This document shows, in pieces, positions 311 through 21,364 of a stretch of 21,364 bases of DNA (the stretch's first letter is position 1; every line of letters begins with the position of its first letter). The stretch is from NCBI GenBank assembly GCA_041562555.1, contig JBFEXS010000026.1, positions 1 to 21,364 of the forward strand, in the 5' to 3' direction. This stretch comes from Sulfurimonadaceae bacterium (GTDB lineage: Bacteria > Campylobacterota > Campylobacteria > Campylobacterales > Sulfurimonadaceae). The notes below the pieces were generated by a model, which did no database searches, had not been told where the DNA came from, and saw only the letters and a program-made list of their open reading frames with translations. Made by a program: the position numbers and the translations under genes.

Positions 311-730
311 TTAGTACTCTTTTGGGCCCTGCTCCAAATATAGGGCTGTTTCAGTATCCCGTGTGGCAGTATGGGAGATAAGCCATTTCTTGTACTCCCC
401 TTCTAAAAAGCCCTGTACTTCCGAAAAGCTGCGAATCGCCAGCCAGCGTTCAAAATATTTTGCCAACTTCAATCGCATCGCATCATGGTCTTCTTTGTGT
501 ATCTTATAACGTTCATACTCTTTTTCCTGCATCATACTCTCTTCTGCAGCAAAATGGTCTTCAACATCAAATAAAAAGTTTTTAAACGCCTCATCAATTT
601 TTTTAAGATCAGGCTCTTGGGCGGTTAAAGTCTCATAAAGCGTATTCAACACTTCCATCTCTTCTTCGTGTAGCATGTTAATCTCTTCATTAACGACTGA
701 GCGTAGCTCTTGCTCTTGAATTAGCATCAT
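311..730 (-). CDS. Single-domain bacteriohemerythrin
   Basis: All di-iron ligand motifs are present: LHEE, DHFAAEE, IHKEDH, WLISHTATRD. GGAG RBS upstream. Confidence 0.9.
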   Translation of the reverse strand: MMLIQEQELRSVVNEEINMLHEEEMEVLNTLYETLTAQEPDLKKIDEAFKNFLFDVEDHFAAEESMMQEKEYERYKIHKEDHDAMRLKLAKYFERWLAIRSFSEVQGFLEGEYKKWLISHTATRDTETALYLEQGPKEY

Positions 731-872: not shown

Positions 873-1499
873 ATGAAACATGATGATCTATTAAATACAT
901 TAAAACAGATATATCTTTTTGACAAACTTGGCGATGATGAGCTTAAAGCTCTAAGTAGTATTTGCACACAGCAGCGTTATGACCGGGATAGCTGTCTTTT
1001 TTTACAAGGGGAACAGGGAAACCATCTCTTGATCCTTGTCGAAGGTATGGTAAGCGTCTATAAAACAGATGACAAGGGAAATGAGATCATTATCAATAAT
1101 TTTCATCCTGTCTCCCTTATCGCCGAGCCAGCTTTGCTTCAAGGAGCCCCATATCCTTCATCGGCCCGTGTAAAAGAACCAAGCGTGCTGATCAGGATCG
1201 AGCTTGAGAAGTTTAAAAACAGTTTTCTGCATAAAGGTGATATCGCACTGAATATAATCAACTCCCTGCTCTTTAAAGTGCAACTCTTGCAAAACACAAT
1301 TGCAATAAACCTTTCTGGGAGCGCCAGAGAAAAGATCATCAACTTTTATCAGAATGAAAACTTTCAATCCCGTCGGTATAAGCAGTATGAGATAGCGGCT
1401 TTGTTAAGCATATCCCCTGAGACACTTTCTCGCAATCTTAAAAAGCTACAGCAAGAGGGACTGATAGGAAAAAAAGGCCAACGGTTTTATTGGATATAG
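873..1499 (+). CDS. Crp/Fnr family transcriptional regulator (Nss/Dnr-like, no N-terminal FNR Cys cluster)
   Basis: cNMP-binding domain (LFLQGEQG..LLILVEGMVSVYK..DKGNEII; IAEPALL..PYPSSA) and a C-terminal HTH (KQYEIAALLSISPETLSRNLKKL). Confidence 0.92.
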   Translation: MKHDDLLNTLKQIYLFDKLGDDELKALSSICTQQRYDRDSCLFLQGEQGNHLLILVEGMVSVYKTDDKGNEIIINNFHPVSLIAEPALLQGAPYPSSARVKEPSVLIRIELEKFKNSFLHKGDIALNIINSLLFKVQLLQNTIAINLSGSAREKIINFYQNENFQSRRYKQYEIAALLSISPETLSRNLKKLQQEGLIGKKGQRFYWI

Positions 1500-1585: not shown

Positions 1586-1981
1586 ATGAGTACAGAAAAA
1601 AAATGGGATCTGCTGTATATTCAAGATACTGCATCTCACCTTAACGCTGAGACTGAGGCATTTGACAGCTTTTTTAAAAGTGTTGACAAAGTTACAGGCA
1701 ATGAAACTGCCCTGAAACGACTTTATATTAATAAATATGACATTGTGATCCATGATTCTACAGTCAATTTCAGAAACAGCATCGCTTTCCTGAAGGAGAT
1801 CAAAGAGATGAAACCTGAACTTGAAGTATTTGCATTCGCCTCATTAAGTGATGAAGATAAAGTTGGGCATGTGATTGATGCAGGAGTAAACGCTTTTGTA
1901 TTGACTGCAGACCAGTTTGATCAGGCGCTGGAAACAGTTGCGCAGATAGAGATTTCCAAGAAAGAGGCAAAAACAAAATAA
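1586..1981 (+). CDS. Stand-alone atypical response-regulator receiver domain
   Basis: CheY-like pattern: LLYIQD, YDIVIHD, FLKEIKEMKP, AGVNAFV. The conserved Lys after beta5 is absent. Confidence 0.75.
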   Translation: MSTEKKWDLLYIQDTASHLNAETEAFDSFFKSVDKVTGNETALKRLYINKYDIVIHDSTVNFRNSIAFLKEIKEMKPELEVFAFASLSDEDKVGHVIDAGVNAFVLTADQFDQALETVAQIEISKKEAKTK

Positions 1982-8175: not shown

Positions 8176-8652
8176 TTAGGTCTTATAAATTTTTATATTG
8201 GGCAACATCTCTTTTATAGTCGTCGTGTCCGGTGGTACAAGAGGGTTGTTACTGATATCCAGATAGACCATCAATACAAAATGACTCAAGTCGGGAAGAC
8301 TGCGTAAGTTATTGTCATTGACTACAAGTTTTTTCAGACGTTTCTGTGACTTTATAACTGACAACTCTTCGATTTGGTTGTTTCCTAAAAAGATGAAGCG
8401 CAGTTTGGGCAGATCATTCAAGACAGTAATATCGTCTATACAGTTATCGCTCAAAGCCAATTTATGCAGGTTGGGCAGTTTTGCCAACAAAGAGATGTCT
8501 TTTATCCTGTTACGTGACAGAGAAAGAGCGCCTATCCATGTCAATGAGGTGATCTCATCAGGGATTGCCTCCAAACCAAGTCCGCTTAAGTCAAGGTAAT
8601 TCAAATTATCTTCTTTAGTCGCATGAATACGTCGTAATGCCTCTTGACTCAT
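8176..8652 (-). CDS. Short leucine-rich repeat protein
   Basis: About six LxxLxLxxNxI-type repeats of about 22 aa, after an N-cap EALRRI...LDLSGLGL. GGAGG RBS. Confidence 0.92.
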   Translation of the reverse strand: MSQEALRRIHATKEDNLNYLDLSGLGLEAIPDEITSLTWIGALSLSRNRIKDISLLAKLPNLHKLALSDNCIDDITVLNDLPKLRFIFLGNNQIEELSVIKSQKRLKKLVVNDNNLRSLPDLSHFVLMVYLDISNNPLVPPDTTTIKEMLPNIKIYKT

Positions 8653-11304: not shown

Positions 11305-13014
11305 ATGAAAACAGTAGACAAAGGCCAAACGAAAGTGAGAACACTCAAGGAACTGGCCTTATTGGCAGATTATTCACTGATGGACACCCTTAAGCGTGAC
11401 CCCGATGCGACAAGAGACGGAATCGACCATGCACCTAGACAGGTCTTTTCCGGACACTATGTACCTGTAAACCCTACTCCCATTGACAGACCTGAGTATA
11501 TTGCCCATAGCAAGACATTTTTCAGTGAACTGGGTCTGGATGACAGCCTGGCTCAGTCAGAGGATTTCATGCGTATGTTTTCAGGTGATACGGCCCAGTT
11601 GCCTGAACCATTACGACAACACGGATGGGCGACAGGCTACGCCCTCTCTATTTACGGGACGGAATATTATGATCAATGCCCTTTTAAAACAGGAAACGGT
11701 TATGGTGACGGCCGAGCCGTCTCTATCCTTGAAGCGGTGATCAACGGAAAGCGATGGGAGATGCAGCTCAAAGGTGGCGGACGAACACCCTATTGCCGAG
11801 GCGCTGACGGCCGTGCAGTTTTGCGCTCAAGCGTTCGTGAGTTCCTGGCTCAGGAGCATATGTATGCCTTGGGCATTGAGACATCGCGTTCACTGACACT
11901 CTATACATCCAGGACTGAGAAGGTCAAGCGTCCATGGTTTCTCAACGGATCTTACTCCAGAGACCCGGAAGTCATGATCGAAGAGGATGTAGCCATCACG
12001 ACGCGTGTCGCACCCTCTTTTCTTCGTGTAGGTCAACTTGAGCTTTTCGGTCGACGTGCGCGCAAAGGTGAACATCCAAACGCACGGGAAGAGCTTGAGC
12101 AGATCGTGCTGCATATCATCGACCGTGAATACAGCGAAGAGATCGATCAAAACCTGCCTCTTAACAAAAAAGTCATCCTTCTTGCACAGGAGTTTCGCTC
12201 CCGTCTCACATCCCTTGTGGCAAACTGGATACGTGTAGGCTACTGTCAGGGGAACTTTAACAGTGACAATACGGCTCTTGGAGGCTTCACCCTAGATTAT
12301 GGGCCGTTTGGCTTTATGGATATGTTCGATCCGAGGTACCAGCCATGGACCGGTGGCGGTGTGCACTTCTCCTTTTTGAACCAACCCGTAGCAGCGGAAC
12401 GAAACTTTCATATGTTCTGTACTGCTCTGCTCCCCCTTCTGGCAGGAGACAAAGAAGAGCTTGATCAACTTGATGAGATCAGAAGCGGCTTTTCCAAAGT
12501 GATGCAGGCACGTATGATCAAGATGTGGTCTTCCAAACTGGGTCTTAAAAAATTTGACACGGAGCTCTTCAACGAACTTATTGTGCTAATGATAGACACC
12601 TCTGTGGATTACACGATCTTCTTCCGTGAGCTCTCCTGCATACCGGACACTATCGAACCTCTTGTCAAAAGCTTTTACGGGGACGCTATCTATGAGGAAA
12701 AGCTTCGTGAAAGATGGTCGCAGTGGCTGGAAAAATGGAGATCATCGATCAATGCTGACACATCGAAATCCCGGGACCTTCTTTCCGAGCAGATGAAAAG
12801 GATCAATCCGAAATATACTTTGCGGGAGTGGTTCCTCGTACCTGCCTATAAAGCCGCCGAACAGGGTGATTATAGCCTTATTAAAGAGTTGCAGGAAGTG
12901 ATGAACAAGCCTTATGACGAGCAATCCAAAGAAGTTGAAGAGAAGTACTATAAAGAGAAACCTTCCCACCTGTTTGACATCGCCGGGGTATCCCATGTGA
13001 GCTGTTCCTCATAA
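11305..13014 (+). CDS. selO: Protein adenylyltransferase SelO/YdiU family
   Basis: [63 protein letters not shown] and C-terminal SCSS. Confidence 0.95.
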
Positions 13015-13075: not shown

Positions 13076-13297
13076 ATGAAGAAGGTCATTACAGAATCGA
13101 CGATCACTTGCCCTCTTTGCGGGCACAGTGAGTTGGAAACAATGCCTACAGATGCCTGCCAATGGTTTTACACATGCAAGGGATGCGGTGAAATCCTTAA
13201 GCCAAAAAGGGGAGATTGCTGCGTTTTTTGCTCCTATGGAACCGTGCCATGCCCGCCCATACAACAGAACACCTCCTGTTGCGACTCACCAGAGTAA
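13076..13297 (+). CDS. GDCCVxC-domain small Cys-rich protein
   Basis: STITCPLCG..E.MPTDACQWFYTCKGCG..LKPK.GDCCVFCSYG.VPCPPIQ. GAGG RBS. Confidence 0.93.
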   Translation: MKKVITESTITCPLCGHSELETMPTDACQWFYTCKGCGEILKPKRGDCCVFCSYGTVPCPPIQQNTSCCDSPE

Positions 13298-13318: not shown

Positions 13319-13528
13319 TCAAGTGATATTTTCCACTAAATCATTGTCCGTAGGATAACCTGCCACCTCATAGCCGTCCTCGTCAAAAAAGTGTTTCTTC
13401 CCTGTATCCATACTGATACAGACCAGAGGATACTCATCGTCCTCCCGTATCTCCTTGATGACAAATCGATGACCCATGCGTGTCTTCCAGCGCTGTCCTG
13501 TTTTAAACTCTAAGTATTCGTATGTCAC
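13319..13528 (-). CDS. Hypothetical small beta-rich protein (69 aa)
   Basis: GTG start 5 nt after the stop of the upstream co-oriented ORF. Protein-like composition. Confidence 0.7.
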   Translation of the reverse strand: MTYEYLEFKTGQRWKTRMGHRFVIKEIREDDEYPLVCISMDTGKKHFFDEDGYEVAGYPTDNDLVENIT

Positions 13529-13533
13529 GCTGT

Positions 13534-13863
13534 TTAGTCGTCGTTATGCAGTTGTCCCGTAAACTCAAAACCAAACTTCATCTTATTGGCTATCTCTTCT
13601 TCGACTTCTTCGATCTGGTCTTCTGTTCGGCTCTCTACCTGATCGATAAAAAAGCGATAATGGTCTTCACGTCTAAAGGTATGTACCTTATACTCTTTGT
13701 CTTTGCCATGCTCTTGCTGAAACTTTTCAAGGCCATCTTCCCATGCAAAAGTCAGCTCACACTCAATCGTTCTCTCTTCATCCTCATCAGGAAGGGTATA
13801 CTTGAATTCCACTTCTTCGTCATAGGTAATTACTTCGTAAACCTTTTGTGCAGTCGTTGACAT
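13534..13863 (-). CDS. Hypothetical acidic protein (109 aa)
   Basis: GGAG RBS and an upstream GGCTATAA promoter-like motif. Confidence 0.8.
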   Translation of the reverse strand: MSTTAQKVYEVITYDEEVEFKYTLPDEDEERTIECELTFAWEDGLEKFQQEHGKDKEYKVHTFRREDHYRFFIDQVESRTEDQIEEVEEEIANKMKFGFEFTGQLHNDD

Positions 13864-13989: not shown

Positions 13990-16077
13990 TCATTCATGGG
14001 ATATGTCCATCAGCTCTCTGACAAGTTTTTTGATGAACGGTCGTTGCACCCCATCTATGTCAACTGTCTCCAAATCAACACTGAAACGACAATGTTCTCC
14101 CATCGGTGTTATAACGGTAAGATCGTCTGCACCGGCAGCTGATGCCATTGTATGCCGAAGGAAATGCGGACCATATCTGCGTTCGGGCAGTTGGGTGTTA
14201 ATGAACGTCTCGATATTTTCCCTGTCACTAATCTCACCAAAGGCTGAAGCGGTAAACCAAGTACCATGAGGGTGAAACAATGACGCAGCAGCATGACCGT
14301 CACGTCTATCGACACAATCCAGGAACTTCATCAAGAGCAACCTCTTTGAATGACGTGGTGCATAACTCGTATGCAACAGTTCCTTGGCTTGATTCGAGTT
14401 AGGCTCTATCAGTTCTTTCTCATATAGATTCTGCACATCACGGTTCTCAAATGAACGTCTTAGCGGTGAACCTTTGTCTATCGCATAGATGGCCTGCATG
14501 CGTTTTTGTAAAATGTGAGGGTCCATCGATTTTGGCTCTCCTCCTCCGCCCAGACAACCGCCGACGCAGGCCATCACTTCTATGGCGACAAACTCCTCCC
14601 GCCATGTCTCACTCTCGAGCATCTCTTGTGCTGCAGCTATCCCGTTACAGATAGCCACTTTTCCTACACCCGGGACCTCTGCTGTTTTAACAAGTTCCTT
14701 AACACCGCGAAGCTGATGCCAATCGACCTTGATATTGTCGCTGTGACCGGCAAGATGTAATGCCGTTCGCACCATGGCTTCCATAACACCCCCTGATGCA
14801 CCAAATATCTGAGCAGCTCCGGTACTTTCGCCCAAAGGATTGTCAAACGTGCCGTCAGTTGGCAGCGAACCAAAGGCAATACCTCTTGCCCGTATCATTC
14901 GTGCCAACTCCCGTGTAGTAATACTGTGATCTACGTCTTCGGATACGCCGGGTCTTTCGGATTCATCTTTTTTTGCCGTACAGGGCATCACGCTTACCAC
15001 ATAAGGCTCGACATCTCCTTCAGCAAACTCAGGGCCCAAAGAACGGGCAAAAGCTCCGCGTTTTGTCAGTGCCCCATGCATCTGCTGGGGTGATTTGGTC
15101 GTACTGAGATGGGGCAGGATGTCAGGCCGGTTGATCTCGACCCAGTTCACCCATCCCGGACAGCACGAGGTAAAAAGGGGTAGATCTTTGCCTCTTTTGA
15201 GTCGGGACAAGAACTCGGCACCCTCTTCCATGATGGTAAGATCTGCCGCAAAATTAGTATCAAACACATAATCGAAACCCAAAGCCCTGAGTGCATTGAT
15301 CAGCCTCCCCGTACTGACAGTCCCGGGCTTCATCCCAAACTCTTCACTGATGGCAATACGCGTTGCAGGAGCTACTTGGACGACTGAAGTCCGTCTTCCG
15401 TTATCGAGTGTATGCAGGACATCATGCCAATGGGGTGATTCGATCAGTGCGCCTGAGGGACAGACCAGTGTGCACTGACCGCAGGAGATACAGTTGGTGT
15501 CTGCTAAAGACTGGTCAAACACCGTAACAGGCAGACGATCCGACCCTGACTCGGCAAAGGCAATGACATGTTGTTTCTGTCCGGCTTCACCACATGCTTC
15601 AACGCATAGACCGCACTCTATACATTTTGACAATTCACGCCAAATGCTCGGTGAAGTGTGATCCAGCAGTTTATGTTCAGGATGTTCTGCTGAGCCCATC
15701 GGGATCTTTTCCCAGCGGTCTTCCCACTGGTTTTCATTCACCAGGTTTTGAAATTGACAATTACCGTTGACTTCACAATGAATACAATCATTGGGATGAC
15801 GGGCAAGCAGGAATTGTGCATCTGCTTTTCGAAACTCTTGCAGTTCCTTGGAATCCGTTTGTATAACATCACCATCTTCTGCCTTGGTCACACAGGCGGG
15901 TTGGGGATGTGAACCGTTATTGACATCAACCAGGCACATCCGACATACGGCATGTGATGGCAGACGGGGATAGTAACACAGAGTGGGAATATGTATACCG
16001 GCAGACCTTGCGGCATCAAGTATGGTAGTGCCCTCTTCTACCTCGACCGATCTATCATTTATGGTAAGTTTGATCAT
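13990..16077 (-). CDS. hydA: Monomeric [FeFe]-hydrogenase (group A, CpI-like M3 architecture) with a C-terminal SnoaL/NTF2-like domain
   Basis: [2Fe-2S] motif C-x10-C-x2-C-x13-C. His-ligated cluster HPNDCIHCEVNGNC. Two [4Fe-4S] motifs, CIECGLCVEAC and CISCGQCTLVCP. H-cluster motifs FTSCCPGW, MPCTAKKDE and EVMACVGGCLGGGGEP. Fused small-subunit region ending LLHTSY. GGAG RBS precedes ATG 16077 (alternative start 16092). Confidence 0.95.
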   Translation of the reverse strand: MIKLTINDRSVEVEEGTTILDAARSAGIHIPTLCYYPRLPSHAVCRMCLVDVNNGSHPQPACVTKAEDGDVIQTDSKELQEFRKADAQFLLARHPNDCIHCEVNGNCQFQNLVNENQWEDRWEKIPMGSAEHPEHKLLDHTSPSIWRELSKCIECGLCVEACGEAGQKQHVIAFAESGSDRLPVTVFDQSLADTNCISCGQCTLVCPSGALIESPHWHDVLHTLDNGRRTSVVQVAPATRIAISEEFGMKPGTVSTGRLINALRALGFDYVFDTNFAADLTIMEEGAEFLSRLKRGKDLPLFTSCCPGWVNWVEINRPDILPHLSTTKSPQQMHGALTKRGAFARSLGPEFAEGDVEPYVVSVMPCTAKKDESERPGVSEDVDHSITTRELARMIRARGIAFGSLPTDGTFDNPLGESTGAAQIFGASGGVMEAMVRTALHLAGHSDNIKVDWHQLRGVKELVKTAEVPGVGKVAICNGIAAAQEMLESETWREEFVAIEVMACVGGCLGGGGEPKSMDPHILQKRMQAIYAIDKGSPLRRSFENRDVQNLYEKELIEPNSNQAKELLHTSYAPRHSKRLLLMKFLDCVDRRDGHAAASLFHPHGTWFTASAFGEISDRENIETFINTQLPERRYGPHFLRHTMASAAGADDLTVITPMGEHCRFSVDLETVDIDGVQRPFIKKLVRELMDISHE

Positions 16078-16131
16078 ATCCGCACACTCCATCCAAAGAT
16101 ATTAAACTATGCTTTTTTCTGACAATATCTC

Positions 16132-21046: not shown

Positions 21047-21364
21047 TTAAACTGGTTTAACAGTTACGCCGTATTTCTCTTCAGCATCTTTACGAGACTC
21101 AAGAGCATAGTTTTCGATCTCGTTGAAGTTTAGGTATTTATAAACATCCGCTTCTTTACCGGCTAGTTTAGCAGGTACGATCTCCATGTACTCTTCAACC
21201 GTCGGGATACGACCAAGTTTAGCACATAGTGCTGCAAGCTCTGCAGAACCTAGGTAAACCTGAGTCTCTTTACCAAGACGGTTGTCGAAGTTACGAGTAG
21301 ATGTAGAGAATACTGTAGCACCTTTTCTAGCTTGTGCCTGGTTACCCATACATAGTGAACAACC
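21047..21364 (-). CDS. acnB: Aconitate hydratase B, C-terminal end (5' partial)
   Basis: [10 protein letters not shown]...[14 protein letters not shown]...[10 protein letters not shown]...[10 protein letters not shown]...YKYLNFN. Confidence 0.97.

Follow-up and report, generated by a model that had tools for sequence, protein, structure and literature searches.

[FeFe]-hydrogenases are the fastest H2 catalysts and are destroyed by O2, and to our knowledge only one natural mechanism of O2 protection is understood, that of CbA5H. In this work, we analyzed a 21,364-nucleotide stretch of DNA from a Sulfurimonadaceae bacterium (contig JBFEXS010000026.1; "the window" refers to this whole stretch), which carries on its minus strand, at 13990..16092, a gene for an [FeFe]-hydrogenase (HydA) with an additional C-terminal domain predicted to adopt the NTF2/SnoaL fold. 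The best sequence and fold matches of this gene product, which we call HydA-SnoaL, are HydA1 of Thermoanaerobacter kivui (8a6t_A) and of Acetobacterium woodii (7q4w_A), each part of an electron-bifurcating HydABC hydrogenase, with E 1e-137, 42% and 40% identity, and template modeling (TM) scores of 0.85 and 0.79 on the target. They share the same M3 domain order, namely a [2Fe-2S] domain, a His-ligated [4Fe-4S] domain, two [4Fe-4S] sites, the H-cluster catalytic domain (H-domain), and the small-subunit-like (SSU) region. However, both stop at the position corresponding to residue ~581, without the NTF2 tail, and they work with HydB and HydC, whereas neither the window nor any of 80 related loci has a NuoF/NuoE-like (HydB/HydC) or ferredoxin gene linked to the fusion. 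CpI of Clostridium pasteurianum (4xdc, 1feh), the model monomeric M3 enzyme, shares the architecture as well as the residues of the clusters and of the proton path (TM 0.83 on the target, 35% identity) but ends without a tail at the residue aligned to query residue 578. The M3-type HydA of Thermotoga maritima (7p5h_A, 645 residues) likewise continues past the SSU region, with an extension that we take to be an Fe-S domain; its match ends at chain residue 552 (query residue 581) and nothing matches beyond, indicating that the two extensions are not homologous. A C-terminal Fe-S domain of the T. maritima type was ruled out for our protein by this missing match together with the absence of conserved Cys residues. 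CbA5H of Clostridium beijerinckii (8zqd, 9f46), the group A enzyme whose O2 protection works through a Cys cap mechanism, also possesses extra domains, but its H-domain and SSU region match query residues 199–583, and the additions, which are unrelated to NTF2, lie at the N-terminus, ahead of the matched part that begins at chain residue 250.

All 43 solved HydA sequences with E ≤ 1e-30 cease to match at query residues 577–583, placing the beginning of the tail exactly at the canonical HydA end, and the full-length model could be aligned to solved HydAs over ~586 columns only. The frame runs ~118 residues past that end (residue ~580), with a linker of ~9 residues between the SSU region and the tail, which spans residues 583–700 (13993..14346, minus strand) and is followed by the stop codon at 13990–13992. 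The original prediction, made from the letters of the sequence, had described an extra region after the normal HydA end at 13990–14349; these positions correspond to residues 582–700 plus the stop codon, and the segments it quoted (AKELLHTSY, KRLLLMKFLDCVDRRDGHAAASLFHPHGTWFTASAFGEISDRENIETFINTQLP, and FIKKLVRE) are all found in the translation.

Several independent comparisons assign the tail to the NTF2/SnoaL superfamily. The isolated tail scores 26.0 bits against Pfam SnoaL_4 (cut-off 24), while within the whole protein the match covers residues 587–652 with 22.8 bits, just under the cut-off. Among 69 family tails, 60 match SnoaL_4, 60 match SnoaL_2, and 23 match DUF4440 at E ≤ 1e-3. When the tail alone was modeled with AlphaFold2 from a 69-row alignment, the resulting model had a mean predicted local distance difference test (pLDDT) value of 87.9 and a predicted TM score (pTM) of 0.82, with helices at tail residues 3–19, 22–26, and 47–56 and a long curved sheet. 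Searched against the PDB with Foldseek, this model gave 117 matches at E ≤ 1e-3 with a probability of 1.0, TM-scores of 0.47–0.60, and identities of 12–22%, led by ketosteroid isomerases (KSI) with bound steroids or phenols, a CaMKII-association-like domain, and NTF2 proteins annotated as having a "cystatin-like fold". A profile search of PDB sequences with the tail yielded weak matches only, to 5tgn and KSI, and in the ESM Atlas all ten best clusters carry SnoaL_4. Taken together, these sequence and model comparisons identify the tail as a predicted NTF2/SnoaL-fold domain, an alpha+beta cone in which three helices pack on a curved antiparallel sheet, as had been proposed from its residue pattern. 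Stand-alone proteins of this kind (KSI 1w02 and 5d82, 5tgn, 3h51, and members of SnoaL_4, SnoaL_2, and DUF4440) share the fold, the Pfam hits, and the language-model neighborhood of the tail, but they are free enzymes or binders with 12–22% identity, whereas the HydA tail occurs almost only fused to HydA.

The tail is less conserved than the body of the enzyme, with a mean identity to the window protein of 57% compared with 75%, and yet parts of it hardly vary. Its first helix, LLMKFLDCVDRRDG (residues 586–599, 14296..14337, minus strand), is near-invariant in 117 and 105 full-length sequences and in 80 loci, corresponding to the motif LLM[KR]FLDCVDRRDG. Trp612, Thr614, Leu635, and Phe670 are invariant, and Pro636, Gly641, Arg646, His647, and Arg692 are nearly so. 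Judging from the near-invariant motif and these invariant residues, the tail appears to be under purifying selection. It contains only two Cys residues: Cys593 is replaced by Ala in a second subfamily (FLDAVDRRDG), and Cys669 is variable. Since neither is conserved family-wide, a cluster-binding or thiol-switch role is unlikely, and so is an electron-carrier role, one of the functions originally suggested for the domain.

The hydrogenase preceding the tail appears complete. The [2Fe-2S] domain (Pfam Fer2_4, 70.5 bits, residues 5–81, 15850..16080, minus strand as for all domains of this gene) retains Cys39, Cys50, Cys53, and Cys67; the NuoG-type His/Cys [4Fe-4S] domain (NADH-G_4Fe-4S_3, 37.8 bits, residues 88–121, 15730..15831) retains His99, Cys103, Cys106, and Cys112; and the two ferredoxin-type [4Fe-4S] sites (Fer4_7 and Fer4, residues 150–216, 15445..15645) retain Cys157, Cys160, Cys163, Cys167, Cys201, Cys204, Cys207, and Cys211. 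All 16 of these ligand positions are invariant in an alignment of 105 full-length family members, so the M3 accessory set is complete. The H-domain (Fe_hyd_lg_C, 268.8 bits against a cut-off of 22.1, residues 236–517, 14542..15387) aligned with CpI and HydA1, to which the protein, accessory clusters included, aligned end to end. This domain contains FTSCCPGW, MPCTAKKDE, and EVMACVGGCLGGGGEP, which we take to be the H-cluster motifs named TSCCP, MPCxxKxxE, and ExMACxxGCxxGG, and Cys310, Cys311, Cys371, Lys374, Cys509, and Cys513 are invariant in the same 105 sequences. In that alignment, the Cys/His ligands of all five clusters are invariant or nearly so, as are the pocket Lys and Met, the proton-path Cys and Glu, and the acidic and Ser residues aligned with the CpI proton path. 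The SSU region (Fe_hyd_SSU, 67.1 bits, cut-off 24) occupies residues 526–580 (14353..14517). The sequence thus describes what looks like a complete, catalytically intact M3-type group A [FeFe]-hydrogenase with an extra C-terminal domain.

Among the NCBIfam models, the general group A model FeFe_hydrog_A (TIGR02512) is passed with 427.4 bits (cut-off 405.95). The A6 model for the NADH-dependent, bifurcating type (NF040763) gives 657.1 bits, below its cut-off of 765, and spans residues 7–580 only; this score and the lack of HydB/HydC neighbors led us to reject a HydABC-type assignment. Assignment as a clostridial ferredoxin hydrogenase fails as well, with 459.1 bits against a cut-off of 900 for Hydr_FeFe_Clost (NF040762), which also stops at residue ~580. 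Counted from the first ATG the ORF encodes 700 residues, and residue numbers here follow that count; starting at Met6 (16077) it would encode 695. The second ATG is probably the true start, because a Shine-Dalgarno-like GGAG (16087..16090, minus strand) is located 9 nt upstream of the ATG at 16077–16075, homologues begin with "MIxLT", and a database version of the protein (P0002) has 695 residues.

To delimit the family, we searched proteins and genomes with the tail. A tail-region search restricted to proteins of 385–1225 residues returned 122 clusters; among the matches listed, which represent 120 of them, every one carries Fe_hyd_lg_C, most are 686–725 residues long, and the tails are 50–65% identical. 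In a scan of 185,579 species with one genome per species, the tail was found in 114 species, and the locus analyses in this work cover 80 fetched loci of these. In all 80, the tail lies in frame behind the HydA frame; the upstream frame is open for at least 569 codons in 70, and in the remaining 10 a contig end interrupts it. When 1.84 billion representatives were scanned with HMMER without filters, the tail matched only 48. Pfam was run on 41 of them, leaving out the seven shortest (47–86 residues), and found hydrogenase domains in 26, SnoaL only in five, no domain in seven, and something else in three. With a profile of the most divergent tails, 119 longer proteins were retrieved, all 119 with Fe_hyd_lg_C. 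In all, tail-bearing HydAs amount to ~240 protein clusters. Among 16 matches in a search of short proteins, 10 retain the SSU region and five of the remaining six come from contigs of ≤1.7 kb; these short matches are probably fragments. Two proteins from the HMMER scan, P0147 and P0154, may be genuine free tails. In a plasmid search, 366 records matched and nine covered the HydA body, none of them past query residue 586, so no plasmid copy of the fusion was found.

A lost stop codon, a frameshift, or a misassembly joining HydA to a neighboring SnoaL gene had been named in advance as what could undo the proposal. The marginal whole-protein Pfam score of the tail (22.8 bits) is the only observation pointing that way, and such an artefact has next to no chance of being the explanation: the junction is identical and in frame in independent genome loci, the fusion is carried by protein clusters from many sources, and hardly any convincing homologue of the tail stands alone. 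We rejected it on the conserved fusion across loci and clusters. From these surveys, the domain seems to exist essentially only as part of this HydA family, with its relatives almost only on HydA, and we regard it as an obligatory, family-defining, and old part of the enzyme rather than a recent accident. The second, more distant subfamily, of ~700–711 residues and with FLDAVDRRDG in place of FLDCVDRRDG, is 55–57% identical to the window protein over its whole length, tail included. One of its members, from EukProt, has 69 additional N-terminal residues that resemble a presequence, and on sequence features the fusion may also be present in microbial eukaryotes. Four tail-bearing HydAs (P0198, P0200, P0155, and P0153) have eukaryote-like features; one is the EukProt entry, and the others contain long inserts of low complexity, one of these proteins having such an insert within its NTF2 domain.

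A search of open full texts (main text only, with most subscription journals outside its coverage) found no paper describing a HydA-SnoaL/NTF2 fusion, and a term search of the texts of the Acanthamoeba and Naegleria HydA papers found no mention of a C-terminal domain. No solved HydA carries such a tail either, in agreement with the original statement that no characterized SnoaL fusion was known. The further claim of an undescribed subtype held in part: the enzymes are uncharacterized, but they form a large family already deposited under the generic name "[FeFe] hydrogenase, group A", whose database entries in many cases already include a precomputed SnoaL Pfam hit, and the architecture is best described as seen but not studied. 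We consider it a solid conclusion from the sequences that tail-bearing enzymes are a distinct, widespread, and uncharacterized subclass of group A [FeFe]-hydrogenases. The added NTF2-fold domain is the only distinguishing feature of this large, coherent clade, and a comparison of the enzyme with and without its tail would offer a concrete, readily testable way into how O2 is handled, how partners are chosen, and what part H2 metabolism plays in the physiology of aerobes. Even if the tail is purely structural, the subclass would be a useful addition to hydrogenase classification schemes. The clade also bears on the long-noted puzzle of proteobacterial HydA genes seemingly without linked maturases (PMC4967309).

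How the tail relates to the catalytic body was addressed with a full-length model, which has a mean pLDDT of 80.3 and a pTM of 0.81, with low values in the Fe-S domains, modeled free of clusters, and 92–97 in the tail. Compared with the tail-only model, pLDDT rises from 78 to ~95 in the first tail helix and from 74–80 to ~95 in the loop of residues 638–657 (14122..14181, minus strand), a candidate contact with the catalytic body that includes the conserved Gly641, Arg646, and His647. These gains, together with the short linker, suggest fixed docking on the H-domain/SSU surface, and the models make it most likely that the tail is rigidly docked on the catalytic body through the first helix and this loop. 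Based on these observations, we tentatively propose, with a probability of about 0.45, that the tail is a docked, non-catalytic accessory cap. A cofactor-free NTF2/SnoaL domain, joined by the short linker to the end of the SSU region, would sit on the catalytic body via the helix and the loop and would modulate the hydrogenase through its stability, the access of gases such as O2, or the docking of partners; the cap itself would probably carry no electrons and perform no chemistry of its own. We infer the docking, the non-catalytic nature, and the link to O2 from the fold, the conservation, the confidence of the models, and the ecology of the hosts. As precedent for a non-catalytic role, the NTF2-like superfamily includes non-catalytic as well as catalytic members, according to excerpts of PMC3924330, and the ECF sigma factor sigma-J carries a C-terminally fused SnoaL_2 domain that modulates its function as a built-in modulator rather than an enzyme, as described in part of PMC5766207. 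The sigma-J partner is a transcription factor and not a metalloenzyme, and the likeness drawn here is one of description.

Several observations weigh against a docked, non-catalytic cap. The SnoaL_4 alignment reaches only the N-terminal two thirds of the Pfam model, and the Foldseek TM-scores are moderate. The docking is read from pLDDT differences, which may reflect the different alignments used (105 versus 69 rows). The invariant polar residues Asp595, Asp598, Trp612, Thr614, Arg646, His647, and Arg692 could equally line a ligand-binding or catalytic pocket, as in SnoaL, LEH, and KSI. The O2 link draws on host lifestyles taken from abstracts and general background, and neither the ORFs of the 21-kb window nor the regions within 10 kb in the 80 loci yielded HydE, HydF, or HydG in a motif pre-filter followed by NCBIfam.

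The pocket-like residues raise the possibility that the tail acts as a ligand sensor or as a small enzyme, with its cone binding a hydrophobic or anionic small molecule (for example a quinone, a lipid, or a metabolite) and coupling hydrogenase activity or localization to it. Binding would then run through the invariant Trp, Thr, Arg-His, and Asp residues, and it is consistent with this idea that most of the fold family consists of enzymes and binders that form pockets, that the top structural matches are ligand-bound ketosteroid isomerases, that the polar VDxRD, W, T, RH, and R positions are invariant across both subfamilies, and that catalytic NTF2-like proteins exist (excerpts of PMC3924330). 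The tail is, however, only 12–22% identical to its structural matches; the loop with Arg646 and His647 gains confident order in the models only alongside the hydrogenase body, more in keeping with an interface than with an open pocket; and across 81 regions, made up of the window and the 80 loci, no conserved neighbor gene hints at a metabolite pathway. The D..D motif of the first helix, which we take to be common to SnoaL_4 proteins in general, may moreover be structural. We consider a ligand-dependent function doubtful but worth keeping in view.

It is less probable still that the tail serves as an oligomerization module, forming a dimer or higher oligomer via the outer face of the NTF2 sheet. 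We understand many NTF2-fold proteins to be obligate dimers or oligomers, and the ninth-ranked Foldseek match is a putative CaMKII association domain, a fold that forms the oligomerization hub of CaMKII, but the tail is confidently ordered in a monomeric full-length model and needs no second copy to be modeled well. A homodimer prediction with two copies of residues 226–700, run without controls, gave a score of 0.00 and a mark of 0.42 and counts neither for nor against dimerization. The absence of maturase genes near hydA suggests yet another explanation, that the protein lacks a [2Fe] subcluster and is not a working hydrogenase in these hosts, with the tail being part of some other role such as redox sensing or Fe-S scaffolding. 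Maturase genes, however, commonly lie away from hydA, and the invariant or nearly invariant H-cluster ligands, pocket Lys and Met, and proton-path Cys and Glu are hard to explain without a bound H-cluster, making this explanation improbable. A docked, non-catalytic cap is the reading that we prefer.

The hosts named among the loci and matches include Gammaproteobacteria (Pleionea, Thiomicrospira, Thiomicrorhabdus, Hydrogenovibrio, and Halothiobacillus), Betaproteobacteria (Gallionella, Sulfuriferula, Nitrosomonas, Duganella, Pseudoduganella, and Caenimonas), Alphaproteobacteria (Thioclava, Alloyangia, Salipiger, Jannaschia, Hyphomonas, Oceanicaulis, and Brevundimonas), Mariprofundus of the Zetaproteobacteria, and one Polyangiaceae bin. 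We take these genera to include aerobic or microaerophilic bacteria; for several, abstracts describe sulfur- or iron-oxidizing, microaerophilic, or versatile aerobes (PMC4744846, PMC3770913, PMC8250860, PMC13488337). A bolder version of the cap proposal, which we think unlikely, is that the NTF2-like domain adapts an otherwise clostridial-type [FeFe]-hydrogenase to O2-exposed organisms, namely sulfur- and iron-oxidizing and marine heterotrophic proteobacteria and, as organelle-targeted versions, eukaryotes. This might be achieved by closing a gas path, by stabilizing a protected state of the H-cluster, or by binding a ligand from the respiratory chain such as a quinone, and if it were true, these enzymes would constitute a new class of O2-compatible or respiration-linked [FeFe]-hydrogenases.

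In a FastTree tree of 71 rows, from which the 10 loci cut by contig ends were left out, branches are short and classes intermixed, with 13 class changes needed against a minimum of three; the starred branches force at least four changes for Gammaproteobacteria and at least four for Betaproteobacteria. The window protein groups with Pleionea and Hydrogenovibrio halophilus/Thiomicrospira WB1 (support 90). The guanine-plus-cytosine (GC) content of hydA is 49.5% compared with 40.8% in the rest of the window, and in the 64 loci with flanks longer than 5 kb, subtracting the flank value from that of the gene gives −9.6 to +11.5 points, with several other low-GC hosts at +8 to +11. The tree and the GC pattern fit repeated horizontal transfer among Alpha-, Beta-, Gamma-, and Zetaproteobacteria. 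In low-GC hosts, hydA resembles a horizontally acquired island. A homologue of the SelO protein adenylyltransferase (11305–13014, plus strand; Pfam SelO, 238 bits) lies, like hydA, in a GC-richer stretch of the window (~45–51%).

When 1192 ORFs from the 81 regions were clustered, no conserved neighbor gene or operon partner of hydA-SnoaL was found. The commonest neighbor family, GGDEF/EAL/PAS, occurs in 11 of the 81 regions at variable positions, and families of the acetyl-CoA synthetase-like, SDR, and ABC types were each seen in 10. The maturase search used the motif CxxxCxxC and a GTPase P-loop as a pre-filter on all frames of ≥250 residues, followed by NCBIfam. The pre-filter yielded 12 frames, including HydA itself three times and two further frames that are nearly identical copies. 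NCBIfam, applied to eight pre-filtered frames and one ORF with the GTPase motif, returned lipoyl synthase, an ArsK-like transporter, a disulfide reductase, two weak radical-SAM matches (E ≥ 1e-4, neither of them HydE or HydG), or nothing. Just upstream of hydA in two Gallionella-like loci lies a radical-SAM-like ORF of 301–348 residues (L003, 6707–7750; L040, 6924–7826), which matches viperin/MoaA-type models weakly (E ≥ 1e-4) and neither HydE nor HydG.

Regulatory signals around the gene were faint. An FNR/CRP box (TTGAT-N4-ATCAA, ≤2 mismatches) was found in 21 of 69 upstream regions compared with ~16% expected, with three of the 21 overlapping the start codon; this enrichment is too weak to use, the window itself has no good site upstream of hydA, and FNR/CRP control was not adopted. 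Promoter and terminator scans around hydA gave counts not above those in shuffled sequence.

Two small acidic ORFs of 69 and 109 residues (13319–13528 and 13534–13863, both minus strand) are located just downstream of hydA on the same strand; neither matches any Pfam or NCBIfam model, and no counterpart of either adjoins hydA in the 80 loci. Between selO and these genes downstream of hydA sits a Cys-rich ORF of 73 residues (13076–13297, plus strand) that matches the NCBIfam "GDCCVxC domain-containing (seleno)protein" with 108.4 bits (cut-off 40). About 13 kb from hydA, a hemerythrin-domain protein (311–730, minus strand), a CRP/FNR-family regulator (873–1499, plus strand; best match FtrB, below cut-off), and a single-domain response regulator (1586–1981, plus strand) lie together and may form an O2/redox-sensing set, with no link to hydA seen. 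A leucine-rich-repeat protein of 158 residues (8176–8652, minus strand) shows weak similarity, far below cut-off, to internalin-type and type III effector leucine-rich-repeat models. The window ends at 21047–21364 (minus strand) in the 3' end of a gene for aconitate hydratase 2 (AcnB), which is in keeping with a gammaproteobacterial chromosome; the gene product matches the C-terminal 85 residues of its model with 124.5 bits.

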